Assembly (NCBI GenBank): GCA_964603585.1
Contig: CAZRVK010000003.1
Span: 67,693-131,692 of the forward strand
Reading direction: 5' to 3'
Length of the DNA: 64,000 bases
DNA from: an uncultured Planctomycetales bacterium
Lineage (GTDB): Bacteria; Omnitrophota; Gorgyraeia; Gygaellales; Profunditerraquicolaceae
Shown here: in pieces, positions 39,670 through 58,318 of the stretch
How the letters are laid out: each line of letters opens with the position of its first letter
How positions within the stretch are numbered: the stretch's first letter is position 1
The notes under the pieces: model-generated
Told to the model about the DNA's origin: nothing
The model's database searches: none
The model's input: only the letters and a program-made list of their open reading frames with translations
Translations under genes and position numbers: made by a program

Positions 39670-39689
39670 CCTTAAAGAGAAATTTATAT

Positions 39690-44400: not shown

Positions 44401-45418
44401 TAAGGCAAAAAAGATCGTTGATCTGCCGATGAAGACATTGATCAAATTATTGCCTTTAGTAAATTTCGGTCAATTGATGAAAGAATTATTATCGCTGGGC
44501 GCTGATTCACAGATGGAGGCAGTTTGGGAAAAATTAATTAAGGCTTTTAAGGAAGAGCAGATCAATCCGGAAGTATTTGTAGGGTATTGCCGTGAGATCT
44601 TAGAAGTCCTGATGCAGCATCCGCAAAACAAGATGCTACCTCAATTCCTTTCCCGGCTGTTAAAGCTTTATGATGAAAAGGCGCAGAACCAGCAGGCGCT
44701 ATTTGCTGTGGTGACACCTTTTCTGGTAAAAATAACCGACATTTTCTTAAAAATAGAGAATTTCGCTTCAATAAAAGACATTTTGCGGGTTTACACGGAG
44801 AATCCTGCCGGTATCCAGGAGTATTCAAGAATTATCGAGATAGTCGCTGTTAACCTGGTAGATGACTTGGTAAAGAGGATTGATCTTGGCCATGATTGGC
44901 AGGGCGTAGCGCTTTGTGCAGGTTTATTAAGGCCTATTACCATAAAATTATTACTGGATAAGGCTTTATTCGAAACCGGTGTCCCGGAAGGTAAATATTT
45001 CGAAGCTTATTTACGAAGAAGGATGGTGGGAAAAGTCCTGGAGAACATGCCTGTTGCAGATCTTTTAGCTGTTATTAACGAAGGAATGTTCGATAACTCC
45101 AAGCCGTATATTGTCAAGAACCTGATTGAGATTATCGGGGCGATGGATAATCCCGAGGTGATCAAAGTTTTAAGTATTCCGCTTAAGAACCCCGATGCCA
45201 CGATCCGCAGAAAGGTAGTTTTTACTTTAAGCCGGATGCGGGATATAGAAAGCACCCGGCTTTTAGGATTAGCCCTGAAAGACGGGGATACGGCTTTACG
45301 CCAGGAGGCATTGCAGTATTTAAAAGCAAGAAAAGACGATTATAGTGTTAATTTGTTGCAGTCGTGTTTGCAGGATGAGAGTTTACCCGAGGATATCCGC
45401 GATGGGTTATCTAAATAA
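41402..45418 (+). CDS. GGDEF-domain (AGDEF variant) - STAND/AAA ATPase - HEAT-repeat protein, 1338 aa
   Basis: N-terminus LTGLFNRRY...DMDGFKMINDSYGH...RYAGDEFTIII (diguanylate-cyclase fold, A-site AGDEF). Walker A INGPLGVGKS. C-terminal PBS-lyase/HEAT repeats (EVIKVLSIPLKNPDATIRRKVVFTL...). Confidence 0.7.
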   Translation: MPDSQENLIFIDDLTGLFNRRYLYSQLPKDLEEARINKQNLWVFMLDMDGFKMINDSYGHLSGDEIIKDLSLIIKENTKVSDKKIRYAGDEFTIIIPNIDAKDVLAIAGRLISKVDTHRFREKHSGKEIHVTISVGIAGYPQDSSDPVELINLADKALYISKQKGKNCASTVSEITTDLFWKKGLLERFPCPVLVGREHEFEVLNGALKQAFLSTASFVLINGPLGVGKSRLLHEFERSIRPQEALIFSAKCEDKFLLQPFYTLGRLLNDYFLSLEKIPSDLFEGLTGTEANALTVFMPVLKEPLKSISKATVDKYEDTDLIEAFIKVLHNIAKKLPLCMVFDDLHYLDVQSLTVLERFSQSSRKEAVLLLAAFSDQGLSIAGIGESPLADLLKKEPFQANIEDLNLSALSEQHVEKMVSSIFSNILVTKDLAGIIYQRTKGNPLFVEELLKYLIEKEFIYYKNGNWAIKPFTGENLPSSFEEAIKSRLADLDDETKSMIAKAAVIGDDFQVDLLHKIDSDDRGYVLDLMESAKKIGLIYQKGASGKDEFSFATAEIRNILLNAIGSEQTKHLYSQLGDLKERINPDKLNSIAGELYYNFKKAQDQVRADQYAMVAKEGKGALYDRTMSYAQSLMESSSQEKMLVSLDKKVWGLVPAVIKGIYMAGVNLMLYPPNNKMCIQSVEDAHKKLSEVFSDVDLLNIAVVGQTIIVNKKKVGKELASFFLDSFISVLRNLGVESISFQKGVEVDELASFIMILNTQGKSEASISDMLKEKNVRHIQVNEVTYDIAKKKTKEKESLEEIMLVDYLLGKLPASGDKMDLPGQVSGHAKEIAQALDKLGEEASKSSGKNKEAVKAEIMAKSIERLGQKAIEKGQDFAKYKEDLAKTILSMEPALRANIFSQEGAEIIGKDDKRINIMHELSRELPEDVIVDVLKNQYLQKDTDILKMKNMVDRFLSDPAKREKIAPLLKKELKQLGAEPEECEWILDSSSWDSLSASDKAKKIVDLPMKTLIKLLPLVNFGQLMKELLSLGADSQMEAVWEKLIKAFKEEQINPEVFVGYCREILEVLMQHPQNKMLPQFLSRLLKLYDEKAQNQQALFAVVTPFLVKITDIFLKIENFASIKDILRVYTENPAGIQEYSRIIEIVAVNLVDDLVKRIDLGHDWQGVALCAGLLRPITIKLLLDKALFETGVPEGKYFEAYLRRRMVGKVLENMPVADLLAVINEGMFDNSKPYIVKNLIEIIGAMDNPEVIKVLSIPLKNPDATIRRKVVFTLSRMRDIESTRLLGLALKDGDTALRQEALQYLKARKDDYSVNLLQSCLQDESLPEDIRDGLSK

Positions 45419-45500: not shown

Positions 45501-45519
45501 AAAGTAAAGAGGACATCAT

Positions 45520-46035
45520 ATGGGGAATGAGCGCCATAGCGAAAGAATAGTAGCCAAGAAGAACCTGATCGGTCAGATGCTGATCAGGCGCGGCTTAATT
45601 ACGGAAAAACAGCTTGAAGAGGCGTTAAATATACAGAAAAAGAACGGGGGTTTTTTAGGGGATATCCTGACCGAGAATAAGTTCGTTTCCCAGGAGATAT
45701 TGAGCCTGGTTTTAGCCAGCCAGACAGAAGTGGTTTATTTACCGATCGAGAAATATAAGATATCAAAAGAGGTTTTAGGTCTGATCCCCAGAGAGATAGC
45801 TTACAAATACCATTGTGTCCCCTTGGAGAAAATGGGTGATGTCCTGGCTATCGCCATGGTTAATCCTTTAGATAAGGCGGCGACGCTTGAGATAGAGAAA
45901 GTGTCCCATTATAAACTGGTTTCGATGATCGGGACCAAGGAGCAGATCGAGAAGGCCTTGCAGGATAACTATCCAGTATCAGGAGATGTCGAGGACAGCT
46001 CTATTGTAAAATCAAAGGAGAATCCGGATGCCTAA
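45520..46035 (+). CDS. Stand-alone GspE/MshE N-terminal-domain (MshEN-like) protein, candidate c-di-GMP receptor
   Basis: LIGQMLIRRGLITEKQLEEALNIQKKNGGFLGDIL matches the MshEN RLGxxLxxxGxIxxxQLxxAL signature. Confidence 0.55.
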   Translation: MGNERHSERIVAKKNLIGQMLIRRGLITEKQLEEALNIQKKNGGFLGDILTENKFVSQEILSLVLASQTEVVYLPIEKYKISKEVLGLIPREIAYKYHCVPLEKMGDVLAIAMVNPLDKAATLEIEKVSHYKLVSMIGTKEQIEKALQDNYPVSGDVEDSSIVKSKENPDA

Positions 46036-47251
46036 GTTTATTTATACTGCAAAAGATAAAGAATCACGCCCGATCAACGGAACCATGGATGCCCAGGATA
46101 AAGCCAGTGTTATCCATGAACTAAAAAAGAATAATTTAACCATTATTGATGTAGTTTTGGAAGAAACCCAGAAGAAGTCTGCCCCGGGCCTGCATCCAAA
46201 ACAGCCTAAAGGCAAGGTAAAGCCGATGGACCTGGTGGTTTTATCCCGCCAGTTAGCGACGTTGATCGATTCGGGGGTTTCTCTTATTACCGGGTTGAAC
46301 ATACTCCATGACCAGGTAGAAAACCCCTATCTTAAGAAAATCGTGGTGAATATTAAAAGTGATATTGAGGCCGGGAACAGTTTATCCGCTTCTTTTGCAA
46401 AATACCCTGATGCCTTTCCCAGTATATTCGAGAATATGATAAGAGCCGGGGAATCCAGCGGCAGTTTGAATGAGATCCTTGAGAGGGTGGCGGATTATCT
46501 TGAACGGACAGAGAACCTTCGGCGTAAAATAACCTCAAGCCTTACCTATCCGATACTGATTTTGAGCATGGCCGGGATTATTGTAGCATTCTTGCTGCTT
46601 AAGGTTGTCCCGACATTCAAGAGTATTTTTACCAGCCTTGGAGGAGACCTGCCTGCCCCGACACAGTTATTGGTGACTATAAGCGATGTGGGGGTAAAAT
46701 TCTTCCCGTTTGTTGTGGTTATCGGGGTAGTTGCTTATATTTCTTTTGTGAAGTTCATTAACAGCCCAAAAGGCAGGATCAAATTCGATGCCTTTAAGCT
46801 GGATATGCCGGTGTTTGGCCAGATAGTCAAAAAGATCGCGATCAGCAAGTTTGCCCGGACCCTGGCTACTTTAGTAAAAAGCGGGGTAAGTATTTTAGAG
46901 GCATTTGAGATCGCCGGTAAAGTCTCCGGCAATAAGGTGATCGAGTTGGCTACGGAACAGATCCGGACTAATATGCGCGCAGGAGAGACGATCTCTGCCC
47001 CTATGGAGCAAACAGGGAAGTTTCCTCCGTTTGTCGTAAAAATGATCGCGGTAGGAGAACAAACCGGCGAGTTGGAAAGAATGCTTACGAAGATCTCGGA
47101 TTATTATGAAGTGCAGGTTACCGATTCCCTTAATGAGCTTACCTCGTTGATCGAGCCGCTGGTAATTTCATTTATGGGTGTTACTATAGGTTTTATTGTT
47201 GTGGCGATGTTTATGCCAATATTTAATCTGACTAAGCTCATCAATAAATGA
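46028..47251 (+). CDS. pilC: Type IV pilus inner-membrane platform protein PilC/GspF
   Basis: Two T2SSF repeats (…GSLNEILERVADYLE… / …GELERMLTKISDYYE…). Three TM segments. Confidence 0.8.
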   Translation: MPKFIYTAKDKESRPINGTMDAQDKASVIHELKKNNLTIIDVVLEETQKKSAPGLHPKQPKGKVKPMDLVVLSRQLATLIDSGVSLITGLNILHDQVENPYLKKIVVNIKSDIEAGNSLSASFAKYPDAFPSIFENMIRAGESSGSLNEILERVADYLERTENLRRKITSSLTYPILILSMAGIIVAFLLLKVVPTFKSIFTSLGGDLPAPTQLLVTISDVGVKFFPFVVVIGVVAYISFVKFINSPKGRIKFDAFKLDMPVFGQIVKKIAISKFARTLATLVKSGVSILEAFEIAGKVSGNKVIELATEQIRTNMRAGETISAPMEQTGKFPPFVVKMIAVGEQTGELERMLTKISDYYEVQVTDSLNELTSLIEPLVISFMGVTIGFIVVAMFMPIFNLTKLINK

Positions 47252-47700
47252 GAAAAAAGGCGTTTACCCTTTTTGAGATCATGGTTTCTTCGATCATCCT
47301 TGTGGGGGTATTATTAGGGATATTCAGCCTTTTAATTTATTGCAATGGATTAGAGGAGACGTCGGTTAATATCTCTACCGCGATTTCGCAGGTGCGGACA
47401 AAATTCGAAGAGATAAAGGCCACGCCTTTCGATAATATTATCGGCAGTTTCAATAATCAGGAATCCGCGATAACCGGCATTATTAACGGCAAGATCCTTA
47501 CCACTGCATCTTATGCCGCAGGCAGTAATAACCGCCTGATTAATATCCGGATCGTTGCCGCCTGGCCGCAGCACGGCAACCGGATTATCGGCGAAGGCCG
47601 GTGGGACCAGGGGGTGTTCTCTTTCTTTGATCAAAATAACAATTCCCGGATAGATTCTCCGGTTGAGATATCCACGGCAATAGCAAAAAAACAAGAATGA
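47248..47700 (+). CDS. Prepilin-type N-terminal-domain protein (pilin/pseudopilin), Ala at -1
   Basis: MRKKAFTLFEIMVSSIILVGVLLGIF matches the class III signal F-T-L-x-E, but with KAFTL instead of GFTL. Confidence 0.65.
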   Translation: MRKKAFTLFEIMVSSIILVGVLLGIFSLLIYCNGLEETSVNISTAISQVRTKFEEIKATPFDNIIGSFNNQESAITGIINGKILTTASYAAGSNNRLINIRIVAAWPQHGNRIIGEGRWDQGVFSFFDQNNNSRIDSPVEISTAIAKKQE

Positions 47701-48224
47701 GAAAAAAGGCCTTTACTCTTATTGAGGTCATGATCTCTCTGGTGCTGTTCGGGGCGATATTAGGCACGGTGTTTCTGGTTTTAAACAGCAATAAACAGAT
47801 GCTTGATCTTGGTTTTGCAAAGCAGGAAATTGAAAACCAGGCCCGCCAGGCATTGGAGCAGATGATCAATGACCTTTACGGGACCAATGCCGGAAAAGTG
47901 CAAATCTCTGCCGGAAACATAATCTTTCAGGTCCCGGTTGGCTATGATGCCAGCGGTAATATGCTTTGGGGCGCAGAATCCCAGGCCGGTAATAAGATCC
48001 AGTTTATCTTAGATACAAACAGCCGAAGTGTCTTGCGCAGGATCCTGGATTCCTCTAATAACCCCATAGCAAATTCCCCGATAAGGGTTTTATCAACTAA
48101 TACTCAAAATCTGGCATTTACTGTCTCCGGAAGCACATTGGATATTTCGATAACTAACCAGAAGAATGCGCGGCGGGGGCCTTTATCCCATACGCAGTCG
48201 TCCAAAGTAAACTTCAGGAATTAG
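47697..48224 (+). CDS. Prepilin-type N-terminal-domain protein (pilin/pseudopilin), Ala at -1
   Basis: MRKKAFTLIEVMISLVLFGAILGTVF. The 5' 50 nt are near-identical to the upstream gene, indicating tandem duplication. Confidence 0.65.
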   Translation: MRKKAFTLIEVMISLVLFGAILGTVFLVLNSNKQMLDLGFAKQEIENQARQALEQMINDLYGTNAGKVQISAGNIIFQVPVGYDASGNMLWGAESQAGNKIQFILDTNSRSVLRRILDSSNNPIANSPIRVLSTNTQNLAFTVSGSTLDISITNQKNARRGPLSHTQSSKVNFRN

Positions 48225-48287
48225 CCGAAAATGCCCTTTGGAATTACAAGATGAGTGCATGCTATACTTTTTCTAAGGAGTTAGCAG

Positions 48288-50738
48288 ATGGTTAATCTCA
48301 AAGATAATAAGACAGGAATGATCTTAATTGCCACGCTTTTAGTGGCAATGGTTGTTTTTATCCTCTCCGGCGCCTATGTTACAAGCTCTCTTGTGCATAA
48401 TCAGTCTGTGCAAAGGCAGAGGGATGCGATTCGCGCCTTTTATTTGGCGGAAAAAGGCACGGAATATGCCTTTGTTGAGTCGCGTAATAACGCCTGGAAC
48501 TGGCGGACCCATGAGATCGCGGCAACCGATATAGATAGCAATGGTTTAGTCGATGACCTGCAATTGGTTGCAACTCCGCAGGCTGTCAGTATTACTGATC
48601 CGGGTGTGCAGTATAATAGCGCCACCGGGTGGGTTTATACAATCGTTAATCCGCAAAACCCCGCGGAGCGGGTTGAAATAAAGACTTATACTGATCCGGC
48701 TCAACCAGGGGAAACTTGGGTATTAAGCCGGGCGGTTGTCAATGGCGCGCAAAAGCTGGTGCGGTATAAGATCAGCCGCAACTCAATGTTCAAGTGTTTC
48801 TTTTATTATCCCGGCAGTACTACTTTATCCAACAGGACTTTTGATGGTAAAGGTGTCGGGAAGATATTCGTTAACGGCAATATTTATCTGCACAATGTCA
48901 ATTTTATTGATATGGCAGAGATATCGACAAATAGTTCCGGGTATATCTCAAAACATTCTTTTTCTTATGAGGCGCCGTATCAATTAGATGATATGGATGG
49001 ATCCCGTGACGGCAGGGTGTTCCTGCCAGAGCTGGCTAATCCGCATATATACAGTCCATCCAATCCTTATCCCTGGAAAAGCAGTTCTTTTCCCCCCAGT
49101 GCCTGGCCGCCGTATCCTCTCTGGAATGTCAACCGGCATTTTTACTATGATCCGCCTTCCGGTTATACGTACAAAACTGCAACTTTTAATGGAGTGGATC
49201 TGCCGGTGAGTTTGGCTCAAAGCTGGACCTGGAGTAAATATAATTACGGGGTTCCTTCTACCGGAGGCCCGGAGCAGGATGTAGAGTTTTATGATGCCAA
49301 TGGCAATATCGCCGATAACCTGTATTGGAATCAGCTGATTGCGGCATACAACTATATTGATCCCGATTTCTTAACTAACAAGAAGTATCAGCGGACTAAT
49401 GCTACGGCAACGGTTAATTTTTTAAACACTGCTTATCAAGCAAGCGATTGGAACGCCTGGTTAAATGCAAACAGCCTGTCGGGCAAGATCAAAGAATACA
49501 GTTCCGGGGCAAAGGATATGGCCCCGCAGCAGATCCCGGGATATTATTCGGATTTAGCTCAAAACAACGGGCTTTATATCGACGGAAATATTTCTGGCGG
49601 CAGTTCGCCGCAAATCCTGCTTAACGGGGGTGTGATCGGGGATTTGAATAATTTGCCCTCCTGGCTCACGATCAAGCAGTTTGTCAATCCTTTATACTCC
49701 GGATATTCTTCTCCGACGCCGTCAGAGGTCCAGCCGTCTTTACAAAAAGTAATAGAGATCGATGTCGCACAACTGAAGGCGTCCGGGGTTCTTATCAATA
49801 ATAATGTGATCTATGTCAGGGTAGATGAGGCGGCTAATAACGCTAAATATGGAATTAAACTGGTTAATGCCCAGGAATTGCCGGATGCCGGTCTTGCCGG
49901 AAACAGTAATGGCTTGGTAGTAGTTTCCCCATACAATGTTTTTCTGCAAGGGTCTTTTAATCATAACCCCAGTAATCCTAATTATACTTCAAAACCTTCT
50001 GCGGTGATAACTAACAGCCGGTTTTATACCTTATCCGCACAATTCAACGATCCGCAGTATCCCACGATGTCATTATATCCTCCAGGATACCCGTATGAAC
50101 TGAATTATATCAGTGCGGAATTAACTACCTATCTGAATGCAGTTACCCAGGCCGATAAACAGGCGGCATTGCTGGCTTTGGAACAAAAGTGCCAGGAGCA
50201 GTTTATTTTGCCTAATTCTTTTAATATCCATTCTGCCCCTCCGGCTAACCTGACGGATTTACAGAGTGTTATTCGTTACGCATATAATGCGTATAACCAG
50301 CAATATATGCCCAATAAAGTTACAAGCGAGACGGTTTATAATGTAGCCGTAGCTACTCCGGAGGCTCCGCAAGGGATAGTGCTGGAACGCTGGCAGAATG
50401 AATCTTTTGGCACTGCCCCGGCTTGGTCGTATCAGCCAAAGATCATCGGTGCGTTTGTGCAGTTAAAAAACAAATGGTCGGCTATGTATGATACCCCGGA
50501 TTTTTATGGTTTCAAAAGGTTCCGTCCTAATGGAACAGGTATATATTCAAAATACACCTTTAGCCCGGGGACTTCTACAAGTTATCATGCTACGTCCCCG
50601 TCAGCTTTTCTTGAATATAATACCATTTTCGGCTCGGCAGGACAAGGCGGGTTGGGGGCTGCGGATTTGCTTGCCGGTACTCAATCCCTTTGGGAGGAGA
50701 TAAGCCCTACGGATTTTAATTTTAATCATCATATTTAA
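48288..50738 (+). CDS. Large PilX_N-domain pilus-associated protein (816 aa)
   Basis: RBS AAGGAG. N-terminus KTGMILIATLLVAMVVFILSGAYVTSSLVHNQSVQRQRDAIRAFYLAEKGTEYA matches the PilX N-terminal domain. The large C-terminal region shares VIEIDVAQLK and other motifs with the next protein. Confidence 0.6.
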   Translation: MVNLKDNKTGMILIATLLVAMVVFILSGAYVTSSLVHNQSVQRQRDAIRAFYLAEKGTEYAFVESRNNAWNWRTHEIAATDIDSNGLVDDLQLVATPQAVSITDPGVQYNSATGWVYTIVNPQNPAERVEIKTYTDPAQPGETWVLSRAVVNGAQKLVRYKISRNSMFKCFFYYPGSTTLSNRTFDGKGVGKIFVNGNIYLHNVNFIDMAEISTNSSGYISKHSFSYEAPYQLDDMDGSRDGRVFLPELANPHIYSPSNPYPWKSSSFPPSAWPPYPLWNVNRHFYYDPPSGYTYKTATFNGVDLPVSLAQSWTWSKYNYGVPSTGGPEQDVEFYDANGNIADNLYWNQLIAAYNYIDPDFLTNKKYQRTNATATVNFLNTAYQASDWNAWLNANSLSGKIKEYSSGAKDMAPQQIPGYYSDLAQNNGLYIDGNISGGSSPQILLNGGVIGDLNNLPSWLTIKQFVNPLYSGYSSPTPSEVQPSLQKVIEIDVAQLKASGVLINNNVIYVRVDEAANNAKYGIKLVNAQELPDAGLAGNSNGLVVVSPYNVFLQGSFNHNPSNPNYTSKPSAVITNSRFYTLSAQFNDPQYPTMSLYPPGYPYELNYISAELTTYLNAVTQADKQAALLALEQKCQEQFILPNSFNIHSAPPANLTDLQSVIRYAYNAYNQQYMPNKVTSETVYNVAVATPEAPQGIVLERWQNESFGTAPAWSYQPKIIGAFVQLKNKWSAMYDTPDFYGFKRFRPNGTGIYSKYTFSPGTSTSYHATSPSAFLEYNTIFGSAGQGGLGAADLLAGTQSLWEEISPTDFNFNHHI

Positions 50739-50914
50739 CTTTTCTCAAGCTTTATTTTATCCTGATACTTCAATCATACGAACATCTTAGAAGATTGTTT
50801 TTGCCTCTAAAATGTGGTATGCTTTAAATAAGACAGGAAAACATACTTTTAGTGCGCTGTTTTGCATGAAATGTGTAGGCAGCGGGTTCCGCAAAAAGAG
50901 GTTCTATAGGGTAT

Positions 50915-53857
50915 ATGTCAGCTAAGCCGTTCACAGGATCAGCTGGTTTAAAAGATCAAAGAGGTTTTGTTCTCATCTTTTCTTTACTGGTCATGGTGAT
51001 GCTTATGGGCGTGTCGGCGGTGGTTGTTTTGCGGACAATAAATGAAACTAACCTTGCCCGCCGCCGGAACAATTCAATGCAAGCCTTGTATGAAGCCGAA
51101 CGCGGTATTGCTTATGCTTATGCTGAAGAAGCCGCCGTAGGTTTTACCTGGTTTACCCATAAGGACAGGAATACACCGGTAACCAGTAATGAGAATGTTA
51201 CAAAAGGAAGTATTACTGTAGAGTTTGTCGCTCCAGTCCCGATTACTGCCACCGGCGCTCAATTAGATGGTGCAGGCAATTACTTTGCCAACGGCCGGTC
51301 TTTTTTGGTCAAGGCGTACCCGGAAGAGATAAATAACTCCTATACCGGAGTGGTTGTCATTCATTCCCAGGCAACAGTAAACGGCGTGACCCGGGTGATC
51401 GAATACCGCCTGGGCCAGGTTTCCCCGTACCAGTATTTCTTTTTCTATCCTACAGACCATACCTTTGGTTCCGAGGTTTATGACGGCCGTAATTACGGCG
51501 GGATACATGCTAATGGAGATATCCTTTTAACCAATAACCCCGGTTTCTACTTCCTGACCGAGCTTACCTCTGGGTCCAATGTCCCAGGGAAAGGATTTAT
51601 AAAACGGGTCTTTAACACTACTTATGCCACTTATCAGGGTGATCAAAGCACTCCTCTTGTTTGGTCGGATTTAAGGCGTATGTATAACAACTCACAGTAT
51701 CATGTAAGTACCGGTAATGTGACTTTTAAATATGGGAATTTGAGTTCTGCATCTACAAAGATCCTGCCATATTATCTTTTAGATAATGCCGGCACTGCCG
51801 CCTGGAATACTAATAATTATCCGGTCAATGGGCTTAACCCCGCCTATTGGAACATTACTAACGCTAATTTAGTTAATCAGGCAATCACTGAATTAGCGGG
51901 TAACTCTTTGCCAGTAAAGTTGCTATCCACCACTAAAAACATTACCGGGTTAGCTGGGATTGACGACGGTAATGAAGAGTATGTCTTTAGGCAGATGTAC
52001 AGCAAATACGGCACGGATATGGCTAATGGGGTATGGCAGCAGTTTTGGCAGAAATGGAAGGCCAATTATGACGGCACTTATCCGGCTCTTTCTGAACGTT
52101 ATGGTGATTGGGAGCGGCAGTATCTTCTTGCGACCAATGATTGGGCGATGAATGCCTCTAATATGATCGATGGGATCAACCGGGAGTGGTGGGAGGATTT
52201 GCAATACGGAGATGACGCCAAAAACCCTGCCCAGGCCGATGATACTGTTACTGGTTTAGCTACCCAGGGGTATATTTTAAATACTTCAAATCAAAGTGCC
52301 GCCTGGCAGGCATGGCTGGCAGAGCAGGATGGTAATGGGCTCACCCTTAATGCCAGAGGCCAAGATAGGACCTTTATCCAGGATGCCTCCCAGGGAGGAA
52401 GTTTTATTGATCCGGGCAAAATAGTCAGTTCACAAACAAGCAATGCTGAAATCAAGAAAAAGGCTAAGAACGGGGGGATATATATTGGCCCGGAAGGCCC
52501 GCTTCTTGGTGATGTGAACGGGGATTTACAAGTTGATTGGCAGGATGAGCAAATATTCTGGGATCAACTGGATTCTTGCGGCCCGGGGTTGTCCGCAGAC
52601 CTTACTGGTGATGGTTGTGTTGATTGGGACGATGCAGATATATTGTACACTAATTATGGCGCAGTTGCCCCGATTGTCAATCCGATCTCTGACTGTACAA
52701 CCGATAAGAGTTTTTATAATGCGCTTCATCCTGCCCGTTGGGGTTTACGTTATAGCCCCAGTAAGGTTTTGGAGATCGACATCGCACAGCTTAAACAGAA
52801 GATCGAGAATGAGATGCCGAATTTTAATGGAGTGCTTTATATCGACCTGGCGGGTTATAATCCGAATGATTGGTCCGGCAGTACCGGGGTCATGTTAGTT
52901 AACGGACAACGTCTCCCTGATGGGGGGTTAAGTGTCGCCAGTTCCAATAATATATATATAAAAGGCGATTATAATCTTGATCCTGACGGAGATAGCGATA
53001 AGAACCGTGTTCAAGATGATGTGGCTGTTACCAGTAAATACACCGGTTTAGAGTGGCAGCCGGCGGAGATCATTACACAACGGGCAGTGTACACAGTTTC
53101 CAGCAGTTTTTCCGAGCCGCAAGTTATGCCGTTACTTAGCCACCAGTACTATCAGTATTATGATGAGCATTATAATTATACTAATGCCGATGTGGTTACG
53201 GACCCGCGATGGGGTAAGCCAGGGGCGAGTTGGATGCCTTCAGAGAGTGATACTTCCTGGTCAGCCAAGATAACCAGCTGGTTGACTTTGTCAGGAACAA
53301 CTTTGGACCTGTCAAGTAAGTCCGCGATAGAGGGTATGTCTTATAATGGGATTTCCTGGGGTGTGTACGACCCCAGTGACCCCTATGTGTATTTTTATGA
53401 TAAGGGGACTGCAGATATTGCCGATGACGTCTATATCCTGCGCCGGGATTTAAAAACTGATCTTGAAAGTAAAGTGCGCACTAATTATAATGCCAAGTAT
53501 ACCTATGACCCGGCGCGCGAGGCAGATGAATATCAAAAAGCAAATCCGGTAAGCGTAAAGCATATATATAATGCCGCCATAGTTACCCCGTATTCTACCG
53601 ACCCGTATGTTTTAGAGAATTGGGGGTCTACCCAAAGGGTAGTAAACGGAGCTTTTATCCAACTGCCGGATTCGTCTAAATTAAATATTCCAAGTTTATC
53701 TTATTGCGGTAGTGATTACAGGGTTTCTAATCCTTCCAAGGTCTTTAATTATGAAACGCGTTTCGGTAGAGGTGCCAATAGCTCTGACCGTCCGAGAGTC
53801 GGGTTGGTTTTCGCCGGTGATTCATCCTGGCGGACGATCGGCCTATCGGATTTTTAA
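50915..53857 (+). CDS. Large PilX_N-domain pilus-associated protein (980 aa) with dockerin-like Ca-binding repeats
   Basis: QRGFVLIFSLLVMVMLMGVSAVVVLRTINETNLARRRNNSMQALYEAERGIAYA (PilX_N). DVNGDLQVDWQDEQIFWDQL...DLTGDGCVDWDDADILYTNYG is a dockerin type-I-like duplicated D-x-N/D-x-D-G loop. Confidence 0.6.
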   Translation: MSAKPFTGSAGLKDQRGFVLIFSLLVMVMLMGVSAVVVLRTINETNLARRRNNSMQALYEAERGIAYAYAEEAAVGFTWFTHKDRNTPVTSNENVTKGSITVEFVAPVPITATGAQLDGAGNYFANGRSFLVKAYPEEINNSYTGVVVIHSQATVNGVTRVIEYRLGQVSPYQYFFFYPTDHTFGSEVYDGRNYGGIHANGDILLTNNPGFYFLTELTSGSNVPGKGFIKRVFNTTYATYQGDQSTPLVWSDLRRMYNNSQYHVSTGNVTFKYGNLSSASTKILPYYLLDNAGTAAWNTNNYPVNGLNPAYWNITNANLVNQAITELAGNSLPVKLLSTTKNITGLAGIDDGNEEYVFRQMYSKYGTDMANGVWQQFWQKWKANYDGTYPALSERYGDWERQYLLATNDWAMNASNMIDGINREWWEDLQYGDDAKNPAQADDTVTGLATQGYILNTSNQSAAWQAWLAEQDGNGLTLNARGQDRTFIQDASQGGSFIDPGKIVSSQTSNAEIKKKAKNGGIYIGPEGPLLGDVNGDLQVDWQDEQIFWDQLDSCGPGLSADLTGDGCVDWDDADILYTNYGAVAPIVNPISDCTTDKSFYNALHPARWGLRYSPSKVLEIDIAQLKQKIENEMPNFNGVLYIDLAGYNPNDWSGSTGVMLVNGQRLPDGGLSVASSNNIYIKGDYNLDPDGDSDKNRVQDDVAVTSKYTGLEWQPAEIITQRAVYTVSSSFSEPQVMPLLSHQYYQYYDEHYNYTNADVVTDPRWGKPGASWMPSESDTSWSAKITSWLTLSGTTLDLSSKSAIEGMSYNGISWGVYDPSDPYVYFYDKGTADIADDVYILRRDLKTDLESKVRTNYNAKYTYDPAREADEYQKANPVSVKHIYNAAIVTPYSTDPYVLENWGSTQRVVNGAFIQLPDSSKLNIPSLSYCGSDYRVSNPSKVFNYETRFGRGANSSDRPRVGLVFAGDSSWRTIGLSDF

Positions 53858-53864
53858 GGATAGT

Positions 53865-54269
53865 ATGAAAAAAGCTACTAAGAATAATCCGTTTTCCAGA
53901 GGGTTCAGTTTATTGGAAGTATTGGTTGCGGCTGCTATTTTAACCACGGCCGCGGGGATTTATTTGGGTGTTTTAGTCCAGACTTCAGTGCTTTCAGAAA
54001 CTAACCAGATGGAGGATCTTGCGCTTAATGCGGCACAGTCTAAGATAGAGGAGATCTCCCAATCCAATATTAGTATGATCATGACGAATTATCACAATAA
54101 GACTTTTCCTGTTGCAGGGTTAGTGCCTCCGGCAGGGCAGGCGAATCCTTTGTTAGTTACGGTTACGGGGTCAAATCAGTTGTTCCATGTCACAGTAACC
54201 GTAAGATGGCTGCAAAGAGGCAGGGTTATCCAAAGATCGGTCTCTACCACCGTAGTGAATAAAGGTTAA
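53865..54269 (+). CDS. Prepilin-type N-terminal-domain minor pilin
   Basis: Internal ATG at 53865 with AAGGA RBS. MKKATKNNPFSRGFSLLEVLVAAAILTTAAG has canonical G-F-S-L-L-E. The longer frame listed at 53712 overlaps the upstream gene. Confidence 0.65.
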   Translation: MKKATKNNPFSRGFSLLEVLVAAAILTTAAGIYLGVLVQTSVLSETNQMEDLALNAAQSKIEEISQSNISMIMTNYHNKTFPVAGLVPPAGQANPLLVTVTGSNQLFHVTVTVRWLQRGRVIQRSVSTTVVNKG

Positions 54270-54274
54270 ACCTT

Positions 54275-54886
54275 ATGCTAAAGGATGTATTGCGGTTTAG
54301 ATTATCCGGGGGATTCACTTTACTTGAGCTTATGGCGGTGGTGGGGGTATTTGGGCTGACGGTTGCAGTTTCCGGCGTCCTGTTAACTACCTCCAGGAAC
54401 TACGGCGATTTTAATGAGGCTAAACTTCAGGCAAAGGAATCTGCACGTATTGCCTTGGAGCGGATAAATCAGGAACTGCGCCTTTCCAGCCCCAGCAAGG
54501 TCAGTATTTCCAATCTTGTTAGCTGGGCCCCCTCTTCTAATGAGCCTCAACCCGGAAGCGTGATCAATTTCCAGATCCCGGTAGGGATATACAGCAATCT
54601 TGATTTAACCTCCAGCAATGAGCTTAAGTGGGGTTCAGCCTTTAATGAGGGTTCTTATTTAGCTTATTCTGTTAATGGGAATTCGCAGCTGGTGAAATCT
54701 ACTTATACTTCTGCCTCCGGGGCTAATCCCACAACTGAATTAGTATCTAATCATATTGGAAGCATAACTTTTAGCCGGACGGATACCTCTTCTTCGTTAA
54801 TACGTGTTGTAATTACCGCAATTGCCATCTTTAGGCAAAATCCGATTTCAGAAAGTTTAACTGTTGATATTAAATTGAGGAATTGA
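54275..54886 (+). CDS. Prepilin-type N-terminal-domain minor pilin
   Basis: LSGGFTLLELMAVVGVFGLTVAV. Confidence 0.65.
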   Translation: MLKDVLRFRLSGGFTLLELMAVVGVFGLTVAVSGVLLTTSRNYGDFNEAKLQAKESARIALERINQELRLSSPSKVSISNLVSWAPSSNEPQPGSVINFQIPVGIYSNLDLTSSNELKWGSAFNEGSYLAYSVNGNSQLVKSTYTSASGANPTTELVSNHIGSITFSRTDTSSSLIRVVITAIAIFRQNPISESLTVDIKLRN

Positions 54887-54898: not shown

Positions 54899-55927
54899 TT
54901 ACTCTTCCAGGGCAAGGCCTATGGCAACGGCAAGGTAAGGGGAGAGTTTGGTGACATTTTCCGCAGGGATATTCGGAGAAATGGATAAATTCTTTAATGG
55001 GTCAAGAGTTACGATCTCAAGCCCTAAATATCCGCCTAAGAATTCTTTCAGTCCGTAGAGCTGGGATGAGCCTCCGGTTATATACATCTCCTGGATCTTT
55101 TGTTCGGTTAAATTCTCGAAAAAATCAATAGAAACAAAGATCTCATTCAGTAGTGTTGCCAGGGTGGTTTTGATGATCTTTGAAACATCCTCGTGGGCAT
55201 TCTTTAAATTGAATTTCAGATCCTCGGCAGCTTTGCGGTCTAATTCCAGTTTGGTTTGCAACAAAGAAGTTACGGATTCTCCTCCAAAACGGGTGTCCCG
55301 GACAAAATAGGGGATCTTCTCCCGCATAATTACCAGATTAGTTATCTTGTCCCCGATATTCAGGAAGGTAATATTGGTTTGGTTCTTTGCCGGGTAGTTG
55401 AAATAAAGGGTGTTCATCATGGTCAATGCATCCATGGTGATCAGATGCGGTTCAAGCCCGGCCTTACGGATCAAATCTATGCGCATATCGATCATTTCTT
55501 TGCGTGTGGCGACTAAGAAAACCCGCATCCGGTTAGCGGAATTAGGTTCATCTCCTACAATATGAAAGTCAAAATATACTTCTTCCGGCTTAAAAGGTAT
55601 ATGATCTTCAAGCTCGAACAGGATCGCCTTTCTTAATTCATCCTCGCTCATTTTAGGTAGTGATAAATGCCGGGCAACTACGCTTTCTCCGGACAAGGAG
55701 ATATTGGCTTCTTTAGTGTGGATGTGCGCTTCATCAAGGATTTGTTTTATCTCAAGGGAGAGATCTTTGGTTTCCCGGATATCTTTCATTGCGGCAGCGG
55801 TAATAAGACTGTTTGAACCGGATTTCTCGATTTCCACCACCTTGAGATTACAACTGCCGATATCCAGGCCGACAGATTTTTTATTTTTTTCTTTTGTACC
55901 AAAAGAGAATAGGTTTTTTATGTTCAT
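54899..55927 (-). CDS. pilM: Type IV pilus assembly ATPase-fold protein PilM
   Basis: Actin-like fold motifs VGLDIGSCNLKVVEI and MYITGGSSQLYGLKEFL. Confidence 0.75.
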   Translation of the reverse strand: MNIKNLFSFGTKEKNKKSVGLDIGSCNLKVVEIEKSGSNSLITAAAMKDIRETKDLSLEIKQILDEAHIHTKEANISLSGESVVARHLSLPKMSEDELRKAILFELEDHIPFKPEEVYFDFHIVGDEPNSANRMRVFLVATRKEMIDMRIDLIRKAGLEPHLITMDALTMMNTLYFNYPAKNQTNITFLNIGDKITNLVIMREKIPYFVRDTRFGGESVTSLLQTKLELDRKAAEDLKFNLKNAHEDVSKIIKTTLATLLNEIFVSIDFFENLTEQKIQEMYITGGSSQLYGLKEFLGGYLGLEIVTLDPLKNLSISPNIPAENVTKLSPYLAVAIGLALEE

Positions 55928-55941
55928 TCAGCGGATTTGGG

Positions 55942-57393
55942 TTATTTTTTCGCCGGAAGGGGCGTTTTATTTAAAGCATCGGCAATGATGAAATTTCTTA
56001 GATGTTCTTTTTTCGCTTTGGTTAAGCCGGCGAGTTCTTCGTTTGAATCTGTAAAGTTGCGTTTTTCCCTTTTTGTCATGAGCATGCCGTCCATGATATG
56101 CGGGGTGATAAAAATTATCAGCTCTTGGTCGGTGGTGGTATTTTTTATTTTACTAAAAAGGATCTTTCCCAGAAAGGGGATATCCCCTAAAAGAGGGATT
56201 TTCTCAACCGTTGTAGAAATATCCTTTTTCTTTAACCCCCCGATTACCGCGGTATATCCGTCTTGGAGCATAAAATTGGTGGATACTTTACGGGAATCAA
56301 TAGAAGGTTCGTTAGTGGTGCCTACGAAGGCCGCGGCGAAACTTTGTTCACCCTGGACATTTAAGGAGATGGTTTGATCCTGGGTTATATGGGGAGTAAC
56401 ATTTAATTTTATCCCCACATCCTTAAATTGTGTGCTGGTGACTGAAGATGAGCTCTGGGTGCTGGTGGAAACATAAGTATAAGGCACTTGTTCATTGATC
56501 TCGATCTGTGCCGGAAGGTTATCTAAAGTAAGGACCCGTGGGTTAGCCAGGATGCTTACACGGTCATCCGAAGCAAAGGCAGTAATCTCGGCGTCTAACT
56601 GCCATGTAGGCAGGATGCTTTTGCGGGTAATAAGATCAAGCGCGGTCCCGGCGGTGGATTTGAGCACTTGTTTGACGGATCTATCGGCACGGTTTTTATT
56701 TTGTGCTGTCCAGTTTACGCCGTAACCTAAAAGATCGGTGCGTTTAACGCTGATGATCAAGGCTTCTACCATTACCTGGGGAGTGCGCCTGTCTAAATTG
56801 GTGATAATATCATGCATTTTCAAGATTATATCCGGGGAATCATTTATGATCAGGGAATTTGTCGGGATGTTTACTTCTATACTGCCTCTGGGCGAGAGCA
56901 TTTTAGTCAGTGATTTCTGGATTTCCTCTGCTTTGGCAAAGTTAAGCGTAATGATCTTTGTGGATAAAGGCAGTGTTTCATCCTCTTTTTTCACGGTAGC
57001 CAATGTCATGACACGGATGATATTATCCTGTGTCCGGTAAGTAAACTCATTTGTCTTTAAGATGTTGTCTAAGGCGGTTTGCCAGGACACGTCTTTTAGG
57101 GTTACATTTATCTTTGCTTTGACATCCTTATCCAGGATGATATTCATGCCGCTTGCCTCTGAAATAATTTTTAATGCATCCTCGATATTCACGTCTTTGA
57201 GGTTAAGGCTGATAAGATTTGCTGCCGGGGATGTTTTTGTTTGCGGAGCGGGTTTCTCCTGTGAATAAATCAATTCCGATGATGAAAGAGTAAAGACCAG
57301 GAGTAAGATCGATACAAGCGGTTTATTTATTCTCATCATTTTTATTGGCATTTTTATCTGCTTCCCATTTAATTTCAAATAGGGTTCCTCCAT
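55942..57393 (-). CDS. pilQ: Type IV pilus secretin PilQ (the true start is probably the internal MMRINKP, about 57339)
   Basis: Signal peptide LVSILLLVFTLSSSELIYSQE. Secretin C-domain VIGGLKKKDISTTVEKIPLLGDIPFLGKILF. Confidence 0.75.
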   Translation of the reverse strand: MEEPYLKLNGKQIKMPIKMMRINKPLVSILLLVFTLSSSELIYSQEKPAPQTKTSPAANLISLNLKDVNIEDALKIISEASGMNIILDKDVKAKINVTLKDVSWQTALDNILKTNEFTYRTQDNIIRVMTLATVKKEDETLPLSTKIITLNFAKAEEIQKSLTKMLSPRGSIEVNIPTNSLIINDSPDIILKMHDIITNLDRRTPQVMVEALIISVKRTDLLGYGVNWTAQNKNRADRSVKQVLKSTAGTALDLITRKSILPTWQLDAEITAFASDDRVSILANPRVLTLDNLPAQIEINEQVPYTYVSTSTQSSSSVTSTQFKDVGIKLNVTPHITQDQTISLNVQGEQSFAAAFVGTTNEPSIDSRKVSTNFMLQDGYTAVIGGLKKKDISTTVEKIPLLGDIPFLGKILFSKIKNTTTDQELIIFITPHIMDGMLMTKREKRNFTDSNEELAGLTKAKKEHLRNFIIADALNKTPLPAKK

Positions 57394-58314: not shown

Positions 58315-58318
58315 ATAC

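Follow-up and report, generated by a model that had tools for sequence, protein, structure and literature searches.

Two copies of a three-gene set for a probable pilus tip, each with a giant putative cap protein, in an uncultured Omnitrophota bacterium

Introduction

Six consecutive genes (A to F) on the plus strand of a 64-kb window, the whole stretch of DNA analysed here, carry two copies of a probable three-gene pilus-tip set in an uncultured Omnitrophota bacterium, each with an unusually large putative cap protein (816 or 980 aa). Sequence comparison indicates that the block consists of two paralogous three-gene modules, A-B-C and D-E-F. They probably serve a T4aP-like machine under c-di-GMP control as its "core minor pilin" modules, with the giant K-type pilin displayed at the filament tip as a binding head. 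The giants form a new family, as yet without a name, within a class of pilus-tip proteins previously described in Thermus and cyanobacteria.

Organization of the two modules

All six reading frames are genuine, and their coordinates in the initial annotation hold except for the start of the fifth gene, E. A start of E inside D was considered and rejected; E begins at the ATG at 53865, with a ribosome-binding site (AAGGATAG) ahead of it. The first module has the order I-J-K: a small GspI/PilV-type pilin (A, 47248..47700, 150 aa), whose start overlaps the stop of pilC (ATGA), a mid-size pilin (B, 47697..48224, 175 aa) and a giant GspK/PilX-type pilin (C, 48288..50738, 816 aa). The second has the same three pilin types in the order K-I-J (D, 50915..53857, 980 aa; E, 53865..54269, 134 aa; F, 54275..54886, 203 aa). 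Paralogues pair across the modules: A with E (27% identity, E 1e-9), B with F (25% identity over the full length, E 1e-13) and C with D, which share three collinear BLASTP blocks of 25-31% identity (best E 1e-19), as expected from the earlier description of the two giants as paralogues. A and B had been read as a tandem duplication, but their likeness is confined to the N-terminal 33 aa and, in the DNA, to about 40 nt, and they belong to two different pilin families. The placement of a minor-pilin block within a type IV filament machine is retained, whereas the proposed layout of duplicated prepilins, two giants and two further pilins is replaced by two I-J-K modules.

The small pilins match known models to different degrees. 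A alone matches N_methyl only, under the cut-off (14.5 bits); its I-type family (n = 23) matches ComGE in 20 members, GspI in 12, PilV in 10, XpsI in five and the HpsC model in five (best E 7e-7). E exceeds the N_methyl cut-off (25.3 bits) and matches XpsI over almost the whole model (E 2.5e-6) and GspI (E 8e-4). B is over the cut-offs of both N_methyl (27.8 bits) and TIGR02532 (22.1 bits). The J-type family of B and F has generic, N-terminus-driven pilin matches only, and B and F are candidates for the GspJ/PilW or the GspH position. Orthologues of F occupy the same position in five related loci. No fourth minor pilin of the FimU/GspH type was found.

E (RGFSLLE) and F (GGFTLLE) have Gly at -1, in keeping with their earlier description as canonical (GFSLLE and GFTLLE). 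A (MRKKAFTLFE) and B (MRKKAFTLIE) share the leader MRKKA, with Ala at -1 and Glu at +5. The presence of this Ala had been recorded correctly; that it is rarely compatible with PilD processing was an overstatement, because every leader of the pneumococcal Com pilins ends in Ala and yet is processed (PMC8727766), and because Ala at -1 recurs in small pilins of Omnitrophota (4/23 I-type and 5/19 J-type, 9/42 in all). We infer by analogy that the leaders of A and B are processed.

Giant K-type pilins

C and D (90-110 kDa) had been introduced as PilX_N-domain proteins. At full length they have zero Pfam matches, and neither attains the cut-off of PilX_N or of any other Pfam/NCBIfam model; the first 100 aa of C reach 13.2 bits against PilX_N (E 0.088; cut-off 25.5) and those of D have no match. 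With D unmatched and C sub-threshold, PilX_N family membership is therefore not claimed for either, and the part of the description that survives is a pilin anchor of the PilX/GspK class. The leaders of C (NKTG followed by MILIA) and D (DQRG followed by FVLIF) both lack Glu at +5. Across the K-type family (n = 68), Gly is found at -1 in 63 members, Lys or Arg at -2 in 56 and Leu at +3 in 62, and Glu never occurs at +5 (0/68). PilX_N is the top Pfam family for these proteins (four members, best E 8e-6), and the best match of their N-terminal profile among PDB sequences is the type IV pilin Geopilin (E 0.004). The conserved Gly, the missing Glu, the rank of PilX_N and the ComZ fold match of C described below support the view that C and D are pilin-anchored paralogous proteins of the PilX/GspK class.

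Homologues were drawn from NCBI, JGI, ENA and Logan assemblies. Eleven D-type homologues are full-length (934-1061 aa), four of five C-type homologues span 98-100% of C (the fifth 56%), and a profile search with D returned 687 clusters. Because full-length homologues exist in independent assemblies, the giants are neither merged reading frames nor assembly artefacts, and the sequencing-error merger considered in the initial annotation is ruled out.

AF2 models of medium confidence, built from 16 sequences only, give C (pLDDT 70.9, pTM 0.67) a helix at residues 3-67, a beta-sheet at 107-166 and short regular strands at 172-222 and 507-582, and D (pLDDT 70.6) a helix at 15-75 and beta rungs at pLDDT >90. 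The ~60-residue N-terminal helix, the beta-sheet and the runs of short regular strands (pLDDT up to 94) are common to both, and the ectodomains are predicted to contain beta-solenoid-like rungs. Among PDB folds, the sole significant match of C is ComZ (6qvi; E 4e-6, probability 1.0), with TM-scores so low (0.19/0.27; 9-13% identity in the structural alignment) that the domain topology of C is not established by it. Neither giant matches ComZ by sequence profile, and D has no significant match among PDB or BFVD (viral) folds.

Beta-solenoids are typical of polysaccharide lyases and tailspikes (PMC6561018), and GH genes lie nearby. Together with the failure of curated pilin models to reach their cut-offs on C or D, this might suggest that the giants are not filament subunits at all but membrane-anchored surface or periplasmic proteins, for instance polysaccharide-active beta-helix enzymes, whose N-terminal helix is a signal anchor only and whose position among pilin genes reflects co-regulation. 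Such a reading is highly improbable, however, given that Gly at -1 after Lys/Arg is kept while Glu at +5 is systematically absent, as in PilX and GspK, that PilX_N matches occur inside the K-type family, and that at about 30 loci K-type genes show strict linkage to those for I- and J-type pilins; no lyase or hydrolase family matches C or D, and no viral tailspike match was obtained.

The duplicated dockerin-like Ca-loops first described in D were both located. The insert (residues 533-573; 52511..52633, plus strand) contains two 12-residue Ca-loop motifs, DVNGDLQVDWQD (residue 533) and DLTGDGCVDWDD (residue 562), with a predicted helix after each. Inserts at the same site in three relatives score 28.3-32.7 bits against Dockerin_1, over the cut-off of 22.9, and the dockerin-like segment is a genuine recurrent insert. 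D's own insert is sub-threshold (15.1 bits, E 0.027) and has pLDDT <50 in the AF2 model, and it is missing in the ten closest homologues of D.

Filament machine and distribution

Ahead of the modules, on the plus strand, lie genes for two PilB/GspE-type assembly ATPases (37966..41396; 567 and 568 aa long, both having an MshEN domain at the N-terminus; T2SSE E 1e-129 and 1e-124), a 1338-aa GGDEF-AAA(STAND)-HEAT protein (41402..45418; GGDEF E 5.5e-43, AAA_16, HEAT_2), a stand-alone MshEN-domain protein (45520..46035; E 1.8e-14) and the PilC/GspF platform protein (46028..47251; T2SSF E 8e-67). The GGDEF-AAA-HEAT gene is syntenic in seven related loci, and its product is likely a diguanylate cyclase regulator of the filament machine. 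The stand-alone MshEN protein, whose gene position is conserved in related loci, scores 64.4 bits for the c-di-GMP motif NF053729 (cut-off 38) and is likely a c-di-GMP receptor. Beyond F, the minus strand encodes an alignment and outer-membrane subcomplex (54899..58975) comprising PilM (54899-55927; PilM_2 E 9e-53, TIGR01175 over cut-off), the 483-aa secretin PilQ (55942-57393; Secretin E 6e-46, TIGR02515 over cut-off), a PilP-like protein (57323-57733), PilO (57730-58314; E 3e-6) and a PilN-like protein (58319-58975). Since the PilM and PilQ models are exceeded and PilB is the best model for both ATPases (TIGR02538; 563 and 591 bits, under the cut-off of 675.65), the machine is classed as T4aP-like on its gene content.

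West-Roberts et al. name such Omnitrophota loci T2SS-like (10.1101/2023.11.21.568195). Under this reading, A to F would provide the tip complexes for a pseudopilus that is short, lies in the periplasm and drives substrates, such as the neighbouring glycoside hydrolases or fragments of the giant protein, through the secretin, K being a substrate-recognition cap as proposed for GspK. GspF is the top-scoring model for the platform protein (382 bits, against 362 for PilC, each under its cut-off), the PilO-like protein also matches GspM, a giant gene, a PilZ gene, a sugar ABC importer and GH2-like genes lie upstream of the locus, and the 64-kb window contains no major pilin or PilT gene. However, the alignment complex is of the PilM-N-O-P-Q type rather than GspC-L-M, with PilB as the best ATPase model, ATPases of PilT size and tandem genes resembling those of major pilins are present in related loci, and neither C nor D matches T2SSK or GspK. 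We regard the pseudopilus as doubtful, and favor the T4aP-like machine.

One to three copies of the triplet, ordered I-J-K or K-I-J, adjoin MshEN, PilB, PilC and PilMNOPQ genes at about 30 loci (metagenome loci L001-L006 and 27 GTDB loci). All 27 GTDB loci are from Omnitrophota or mislabelled PVC/Planctomycetia MAGs, and the window's order I-J-K-K is repeated in one related locus. The giant pilin family is a conserved feature of the phylum Omnitrophota. The initial annotation had overlooked both this conservation and the two I-J-K modules.

Comparison with known systems

In ComZ of Thermus thermophilus (PDB 6QVI; Salleh et al., 2019, PMC6561018), a beta-solenoid is inserted into a pilin fold like that of GspK; the protein binds its neighbour, the pilin PilA2, and steric arguments have been put forward for a position at the pilus tip (PMC6561018). 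Like the giants, ComZ is large and pilin-like, has a hydrophobic helix at its N-terminus and lies in a group of small minor-pilin genes, and it is the only PDB fold matched significantly by C. However, ComZ is shorter (554 aa; C and D have 816 and 980 aa), is linked to them by no profile match and is missed by the fold search with D. The giants have extra mixed alpha/beta regions and the dockerin insert. ComZ serves a competence pilus as DNA receptor and occurs once per locus, whereas the Omnitrophota loci have two or three modules. A competence (DNA-uptake) pilus with K as a tip DNA receptor would agree with the ComZ match, with matches of the small pilins to ComGE, ComGF and ComGD models, and with one of the two cyanobacterial minor-pilin sets priming competence pili (bioRxiv 10.64898/2026.02.12.705559). 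This role is unlikely, because the Com matches are N-terminus-driven and under cut-offs, the ComZ likeness is at fold level only, no ComEA-, ComEC- or DprA-type family occurs among the Pfam/NCBIfam matches of the scanned window ORFs, and the dockerin insert and the sugar-uptake and glycosidase neighbours point to surface or polysaccharide interactions.

Every cyanobacterial PilX carries a solenoid and has been proposed to take the place of PilY1 as plug and adhesin at the tip, and within a single genome two minor-pilin sets prime two distinct, specialised pili (Schuergers et al., 2026, bioRxiv 10.64898/2026.02.12.705559). Like the giants, these proteins, including the HpsA-like PilX-EPS type, are minor pilins that lack Glu5 and belong to two sets; a terminal position and a bulky solenoid set into the pilin fold are probable further shared features, and the HpsC matches of the I-type pilins are a further likeness. 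On the other hand, they belong to another phylum, C and D have no detectable sequence relationship to any named model, the cyanobacterial sets comprise four core pilin types including FimU where three were found here, and the Omnitrophota modules are adjacent, head to head at the K genes.

In the PilX/PilY1 systems of P. aeruginosa and of M. xanthus clusters 1-3, minor pilins act as primers of pilus extension and remain at the tip afterwards (Treuner-Lange et al., 2020, PMC7541494). PilX also lacks Glu5 and touches a large adhesin, several alternative clusters can occur per genome, and PilX_N is the top family here, although not significant on C or D. However, PilY1 is a separate non-pilin, whereas in C and D the large domain seems to be joined to the PilX-type pilin itself; no PilY1-type family was seen among the Pfam annotations of genes in the six metagenome loci. 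The GspI-GspJ-GspK complex (PDB 3CI0; PMC7541494, PMC6561018) likewise has a small I, a mid-size J and a large K without Glu5 that caps the fibre; E resembles XpsI/GspI over almost the whole model, and the K-I-J or I-J-K order is conserved. GspK, at about 330 aa, has an alpha-helical insert, whereas C and D are 2.5-3 times larger, beta-rich and without a T2SSK match, and the machine is of the PilMNOPQ type, not GspC/L/M.

Type IV pilins of modular build occur widely, and for many of the modules there is no signature in databases (Raynaud et al., 2021, 10.1101/2021.01.27.428410). In the examples PilB and PilC of Streptococcus sanguinis, CofB and TcpB, a functional module grafted on a pilin is displayed at the tip, as proposed for the giants; unlike the K-type pilins here, they have canonical class III peptides with Glu5, and their modules (vWA, lectin) are appended at the C-terminus. 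By analogy with ComZ, the module of C and D is probably inserted in the pilin fold rather than appended. Verru_Chthon cassettes contain several prepilin-type proteins and also one very large protein. These cassettes (A-D; TIGR02596, TIGR02598-TIGR02600; Verrucomicrobia, Chthoniobacter), described in TIGRFAMs, share the PVC superphylum; cassette protein C is matched by 9/19 J-type and 7/23 I-type members, but these matches are N-terminus-driven and far under the 256-bit cut-off, and C and D have no match to cassette protein D at E <= 0.1.

Proposed mechanism

The role of the modules as tip complexes of a T4aP-like filament is supported by the three paralogue pairs, the recurrent triplet, the K N-terminus with its PilX_N matches, the AF2 features, the ComZ match of C, the GspI, PilV, ComGE, XpsI and HpsC matches of the I-type family, the cyanobacterial PilX precedent, the machine type and the absence of PilY1-type families from the annotated metagenome loci. 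It is weakened by the sub-threshold scores of C and D, the missing fold match of D, the low ComZ TM-scores, the medium confidence of the AF2 models, the ambiguity of B and F between J and H types, the missing fourth minor pilin, the lack of major pilin, PilT and prepilin peptidase genes in the window and the size of a 90-110 kDa cap that would have to pass a 483-aa secretin. The mechanism is drawn by analogy with GspI-J-K, FimU-PilV-W-X-PilY1, ComZ-PilA2 and the cyanobacterial PilX sets. Class III-type N-terminal helices would insert the three pilins of a module into the inner membrane, where a prepilin peptidase encoded elsewhere would trim them. The three would then assemble into a trimeric primer on the PilC platform, and PilB-type ATPases would polymerise a major pilin, also encoded elsewhere, beneath it. 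Because K lacks Glu at +5, no subunit could be added above it and it would end as the cap, with its beta-solenoid-containing ectodomain of 700-900 aa shown at the filament tip as plug and binding head. Trimer formation and tip location of A-B-C and D-E-F are suggested by these analogous systems.

The giant cap proteins probably act as the binding head of the pilus, and the ligand would most likely be a prey, host or polysaccharide surface; judged from the analogous ComZ and cyanobacterial PilX, the pilus-tip adhesin role suggested in the initial annotation is the most reasonable one. With two modules, the machine would have a choice of two tips, that of D with an additional dockerin-type Ca2+ module.

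Two Three-Gene Modules of Minor Pilins

Six ORFs, all in the forward direction, occupy positions 47248-54886: A (47248-47700, 150 aa), B (47697-48224, 175 aa), C (48288-50738, 816 aa), D (50915-53857, 980 aa), E (53865-54269, 134 aa), and F (54275-54886, 203 aa). The initial annotation grouped them as a tandem duplication (A and B), two giants (C and D), and two downstream minor pilins (E and F). The genes are all present and the initial observation largely holds, but pairwise comparison arranges them differently: C is paralogous to D (three collinear blocks, E 1e-19), A to E (27% identity across 116 aa, E 1e-9), and B to F (25% identity over the full length, E 1e-13). Because of these three paralogue pairs, the block is two three-gene modules, A-B-C and D-E-F, each with a small GspI/PilV-like pilin (I-type; A and E), a mid-size pilin (J-type; B and F), and a giant PilX/GspK-like pilin (K-type; C and D). 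The proposed tandem duplication of A and B is rejected, as the likeness of the two proteins is confined to their first 33 residues. At their 5' ends (47248-47290 and 47697-47739) about 40 nt are near-identical (ATGAGAAAAAAGGC.TTTAC.CTT.TTGAG.TCATG), beyond which the genes are unrelated at the DNA level. This suggests a shared or converted leader, not gene duplication; the near-identity may stem from gene conversion, or from a constraint on the MRKKAFTL leader, translational or signal-related, that both genes share.

The start of A overlaps the stop of the platform gene and the start of B overlaps the stop of A, with ATGA at both junctions, so the run from 45520 onward looks like one operon. 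A scan for consensus promoters and terminators across 45.4-55.1 kb was uninformative, with site counts not above those of shuffled sequence. The start of E is placed at ATG 53865, 8 bases 3' of the D stop and preceded by AAGGATAG, in preference to a GTG inside D that a mechanical ORF list gives. In the protein collection, E appears as an NCBI gene call of 118 aa (P0164) and a Logan call of 134 aa. The shorter call is probably a start-codon mis-annotation, because it would begin past the cleavage site (Gly-Phe) and so lose the class III signal peptide.

According to gene maps, the triplet recurs in one to three copies, in the order small-mid-giant or giant-small-mid, in six metagenome and 27 GTDB loci (L001-L006 and L007-L033). 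In 17 of these 33 related loci, the I-J-K or K-I-J triplet adjoins PilB and PilC genes and usually also MshEN and PilMNOPQ genes; the others are short or carry only pilin genes, the context being read where the contig reaches far enough. On long contigs the neighbors are a GGDEF-AAA-HEAT protein, a stand-alone MshEN protein, two PilB/GspE-type ATPases, PilC, PilN, PilO, a secretin, and PilM. The gene order is I-J-K-K in L008, as in the window, I-J-K-I-J-K in L021, and I-J-K-K-I-J-K in L005. All 27 genome loci belong to MAGs or SAGs of Candidatus Omnitrophota, three of them labeled 'uncultured Planctomycetia' and one 'PVC group', and the best of the GTDB relatives is 44% identical.

In L027 (8837 and 12122) and L029 (8858 and 12135), prepilin-type genes flanking the K-type genes encode 328-410 aa past the cleavage site, far more than the usual I- and J-type pilins, which suggests a further modular expansion of other tip subunits. 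In L001-L004, a two-component system is inserted between pilC and the pilin genes, and a gene for a retropepsin-like aspartic protease (Asp_protease_2/gag-asp_proteas, 363-373 aa, with a coiled-coil N-terminal part) directly adjoins the minor-pilin block (minus strand; L001 13888-14979, L003 13033-14154). It was considered as an unusual leader peptidase and rejected, being a soluble coiled-coil protein with no counterpart in the window.

Small and Mid-Size Pilins and Their Leaders

Only four canonical prepilin N-termini occur in the 64 kb window, those of A, B, E, and F. N_methyl (PF07963, cut-off 21.2 bits) and TIGR02532 (cut-off 16.3 bits) match B (27.8 and 22.1 bits) and E (25.3 and 23.6 bits) above the cut-offs; F (16.0 and 15.3 bits) and A (14.5 bits with N_methyl, none with TIGR02532) score below them and are full-length paralogues of B and E, respectively. 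The family of A and E (n = 23) is matched by ComGE (20/23), GspI (12/23), PilV (10/23), XpsI (5/23), and HpsC (5/23), and E alone matches XpsI over nearly the whole model (E 2.5e-6). By these matches the family is assigned to I-type minor pilins. The family of B and F (n = 19) gives only generic matches (ComGE, Verru_Chthon cassette protein C, GspH, ComGF, and GspJ), which are driven by the N-terminus and do not discriminate between GspJ and GspH; the J-type label, in these proteins as in the triplet generally, is taken from size and position only, the I-type label being backed by the GspI, PilV, and ComGE matches. Glu at +5 is invariant in both families, and against the PDB both match only the pilin α1 helix. 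Of the 23 aligned I-type pilins, the 14 of the longer subfamily have a C-terminal loop whose consensus, 'GEDxNxNGxxDSPC', resembles a Ca2+-binding loop. A weaker copy, FFDQNNNSRIDSPVE, is present at the C-terminus of A (47590-47690), and the paralogue E and the short E-type subfamily are devoid of it.

E and F are canonical, as annotated, with Gly at -1, Phe or Met at +1, and Glu at +5. The leader sequences likewise confirm Ala at -1 in A and B, combined with Phe at +1 and Glu at +5. Strom and Lory (1991) reportedly found Ala to be the single partly tolerated -1 substitution in P. aeruginosa. Among pilin-like genes of the related loci, the -1 residue is Gly in 55 and Ala in 11, and in curated Omnitrophota families Ala occupies this position in 4/23 I-type, 5/19 J-type, and 4/68 K-type proteins. 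[quoted passage not shown] According to a major review, bacterial leaders 'invariably' terminate in Gly (PMC4471445). The leaders of the pneumococcal Com pilins, however, all end in Ala as the natural -1 residue and are recognized by PilD (PMC8727766), so that the initial view of Ala as rarely compatible with PilD is overstated. Because Ala recurs at -1 in relatives and the Com pilins are recognized by PilD, processing of the A and B leaders is plausible.

Giant Pilins of the PilX/GspK Class

D has 11 homologues of 934-1061 aa, which align with 98-100% of it; nine share 38-41% identity and two 31-32%. For C there are five, of which four (P0012-P0015) span 98-100% and one (P0016) 56% of it. These homologues come from NCBI, JGI, ENA, and Logan assemblies, and full-length relatives of both giants in independent assemblies rule out a merging of ORFs by sequencing error, an artefact raised in the initial annotation. 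A profile of the D group retrieved 687 clusters at E <= 1e-3 from 1.84 billion representatives, 93 of them at E <= 1e-30 and most 700-1100 aa long. No sequence-level relative of the giant family was found in the PDB.

No Pfam or NCBIfam model matches C or D significantly. PilX_N membership, claimed initially for both, is not established by its HMM: with PilX_N (PF14341, gathering score 25.5 bits) the full-length proteins give no match, the first 100 aa of C reach 13.2 bits (E 0.088), and those of D are not matched. The evidence for a class assignment comes from the wider family. PilX_N is the model most often matched among 68 diverse family N-termini (4/68 at E <= 0.01, best 8e-6), and in the PDB the K-type N-terminal profile best matches Geopilin, a type IV pilin, with the leader included in the match (E 0.004); only pilin α1 matches were found for this region in the PDB. 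The leader ends in NKTG, followed by MILIATLLVAMVVFIL, in C, and in DQRG, followed by FVLIFSLLVMVMLMGV, in D. Both are of class III type with a terminal Gly and are followed by about 20 hydrophobic residues without Glu at +5. Across the K-type family (n = 68), the -1 residue is Gly in 63, Ala in 4, and Ser in 1, with Lys or Arg at -2 in 56/68, Leu at +3 in 62/68, and Glu at +5 in none. The absence of Glu5 is a hallmark of PilX and GspK (PMC7541494). Because PilX_N is the top family, Geopilin is matched, and Gly at -1 occurs without Glu at +5, the wider-family sequences place C and D in the PilX/GspK class. They are also encoded with I- and J-type pilins beside an assembly machine, a setting that makes a membrane-anchored β-helix protein outside any filament highly improbable. 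GspK itself is not indicated: T2SSK/GspK models in Pfam and NCBIfam gave no match to C or D at E <= 0.1, and the predicted ectodomains are mainly β or mixed, whereas GspK has an α-helical insert domain.

Predicted Structure and the ComZ Architecture

Structure prediction for C and D with AlphaFold2, on alignments of 16 sequences, gave models of medium quality (pLDDT 70.9 and 70.6, pTM 0.67 and 0.65). Both have a helix of about 60 residues at the N-terminus, a sheet of 4-5 strands, and a conserved C-terminal strand. In both, short strands also follow one another at regular spacing, in stretches with pLDDT up to 94, a pattern expected for a β-solenoid; regions of mixed α/β structure break these stretches. 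A Foldseek search of the PDB with C returned a single significant family, that of Thermus thermophilus ComZ (6qvi; E 4e-6, probability 1.0), with low TM-scores of 0.19/0.27. D gave no significant match among PDB or viral structures.

ComZ has a GspK-like pilin fold with a β-solenoid of about 380 residues inserted ahead of the last strand; it binds the adjacent pilin PilA2 and has been argued to be the tip pilin (PMC6561018). In a 2026 preprint, every cyanobacterial PilX homologue is reported to have this architecture (pilin α1 and a β-sheet, with the β-solenoid between the penultimate and last strands), with an HpsA-like subfamily that is greatly expanded; the solenoid is proposed to replace PilY1 as tip plug, and two minor-pilin sets prime two specialized pili in cyanobacteria (bioRxiv 10.64898/2026.02.12.705559). 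The family N-termini and the ComZ match uphold the giants as candidate tip pilins, the part of the initial interpretation that survives without its PilX_N membership, tandem duplication, and incompatibility of Ala with PilD. A DNA receptor of a competence pilus, the role that the likeness to ComZ would also recall, appears improbable. The candidate tip pilin is the reading followed below.

A Dockerin-Like Segment in D

Residues 533-573 of D contain two 12-residue loops, DVNGDLQVDWQD (533) and DLTGDGCVDWDD (562), each with Asp, Asn, or Thr at positions 1, 3, 5, 9, and 12 and a helix behind it, as in dockerin type I loops; the helices (543-553 and 571-579) are predicted with pLDDT below 50. The dockerin-like loops noted in the initial annotation are thus seen as motifs, but D stays below the gathering score of Dockerin_1 (PF00404, 22.9 bits), the insert alone reaching 15.1 bits (E 0.027) and the full protein 11 bits. 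The insert is missing from the ten closest D homologues. Equivalent inserts in three relatives (P0021, P0023, and P0027) score 28.8, 28.3, and 32.7 bits, above the cut-off, and lie at the same site, between the conserved motifs 'NGGIYIG' and 'NPI(S/A)DCT'. Since these inserts exceed the cut-off at one common site, a dockerin-type Ca2+ module is indicated by the sequences as a recurrent accessory of the giant K-type family. It may bind Ca2+ for structural reasons or dock a partner. Pfam scans of the window ORFs found no Cohesin family, and neither cohesin nor dockerin was found in the giant ORF at the window start or its neighbors.

Assembly Machine and Genomic Context

Upstream of the minor pilins are two PilB/GspE-type ATPases (567-568 aa) with MshEN N-domains, whose best-scoring model is PilB (563 and 591 bits, below the cut-off), followed by a GGDEF-AAA-HEAT protein of 1338 aa, a stand-alone MshEN protein with a c-di-GMP motif (64 bits, cut-off 38), and PilC/GspF. 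PilM and a PilQ-type secretin, both above NCBIfam cut-offs, are encoded downstream on the minus strand together with PilP-like, PilO, and PilN-like proteins. PilB, PilC, PilM, PilN, PilO, PilP, and PilQ of a type IVa machine are thus all represented, PilB and PilC as best models below cut-off and PilN and PilP by weak assignments. The machine, as read from these genes, has a T4aP-type architecture and is probably under c-di-GMP control. The dense c-di-GMP signaling layer around the machine (37966-46035 and 27540-28244, plus strand) comprises the GGDEF-STAND-HEAT protein, the stand-alone MshEN protein, the MshEN N-domains of the ATPases (at 25 and 37 bits slightly under the motif cut-off of 38), and a PilZ protein. 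The two adjacent ATPases are both full-length PilB-type, whereas most related loci pair a short ATPase of ~415 aa that lacks MshEN with a long one. The secretin ORF (55942-57393, minus strand) overlaps the PilP-like ORF (57323-57733) by 71 nt (57323-57393), and its start is probably a downstream Met (MPIKMMRINKP...).

Genes for the major pilin, PilD, and PilT are often encoded apart from such loci, and none was found within the 64 kb window. A motif search for a prepilin peptidase found no G.GD.K motif in the window or in L001-L033, and no ATPase ORF of PilT size is listed in the window, both ATPases being PilB-type. Other Omnitrophota loci have PilT-size ATPases and tandem major-pilin-like genes close to the modules. 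In L019, L021, L022, L023, L031, and L033, one to three tandem genes of ~150 aa with the N-terminus GFTLVEIMIVVAIIALLAAIAI (e.g., L033 16324-17570) lie within ~10 kb of module genes, and 6-10 kb from the K-type gene if both are on the contig; none occurs in the window.

The window opens inside an ORF of at least 9139 aa (16-27435, plus strand) that runs off its start and matches the 'Archaeovorin'-type giant proteins of Omnitrophota. Its domains are a mosaic of unrelated enzymes and regulators, with an alpha/beta hydrolase, an Rce1-like protease, GNAT, sigma-70 regions 2/3/4 (twice), a CheB methylesterase, several methyltransferases, and an HTH. At 27540-37891 (plus strand) follow the PilZ protein and a sugar ABC importer made up of a solute-binding protein and two permeases. 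Two GH2-type TIM-barrel proteins, one of them with TPR, and two ORFs without a family match (417 and 541 aa) also lie in this stretch. The order 'giant gene - pilZ - sugar import - glycosidase' is that of West-Roberts et al. (10.1101/2023.11.21.568195), who linked the 'Archaeovorin' genes to predation and to T2SS-like loci in their vicinity that hold 'many small genes with class III signal peptides'. T4aP genes are nearly universal in Omnitrophota (PMC10066038). That the giants instead form a T2SS-like pseudopilus cap acting in secretion is rather unlikely: the T2SS-like loci speak for such a cap, and the T4aP-type machine and the missing GspK matches against it.

A Putative Solenoid-Bearing Pilus Tip in Omnitrophota

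As the most likely mechanism, by analogy with known minor-pilin sets, each I-J-K set would form a priming complex on PilC, below which the major pilin would be polymerized, and the giant K subunit, devoid of Glu5, would remain on top as plug and binding head. Two I-J-K sets would then provide two alternative tips. As a distant speculation, the dockerin module would turn the tip of a retractable filament into a docking platform and load cargo onto it in a Ca2+-dependent manner, a 'cellulosome on a pilus' for prey wall attachment and digestion by ultra-small Omnitrophota, with two to three I-J-K modules switching tip specificity. Possible cargoes are a glycoside hydrolase, a module of cohesin-like type, and a portion of the neighboring 'Archaeovorin'-type giant protein.

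The literature on Omnitrophota notes T4aP/T2SS-like loci and small class III genes near giant genes, and the putative cap proteins are absent from it. A literature search pairing Omnitrophota with pseudopilins found no paper, and the giant cap pilins appear to have been undescribed before. They reveal no new mechanism and are probably an unannotated, phylum-wide addition to the known class of solenoid-bearing terminal minor pilins, the dockerin accessory and the modular duplication being the most distinctive traits of the family. The idea of a solenoid-bearing PilX replacing PilY1, drawn from ComZ and cyanobacterial PilX, would thereby extend to the PVC-related phylum Omnitrophota. These are uncultured, mostly ultra-small bacteria that are suspected to be predators or parasites. 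A phylum-wide K-type pilin family (700-1100 aa, 687 clusters, no Pfam/NCBIfam model), organized in I-J-K modules, is now defined for them; from it come specific candidates for the filament end that makes contact, and a family on which annotation models can be built.
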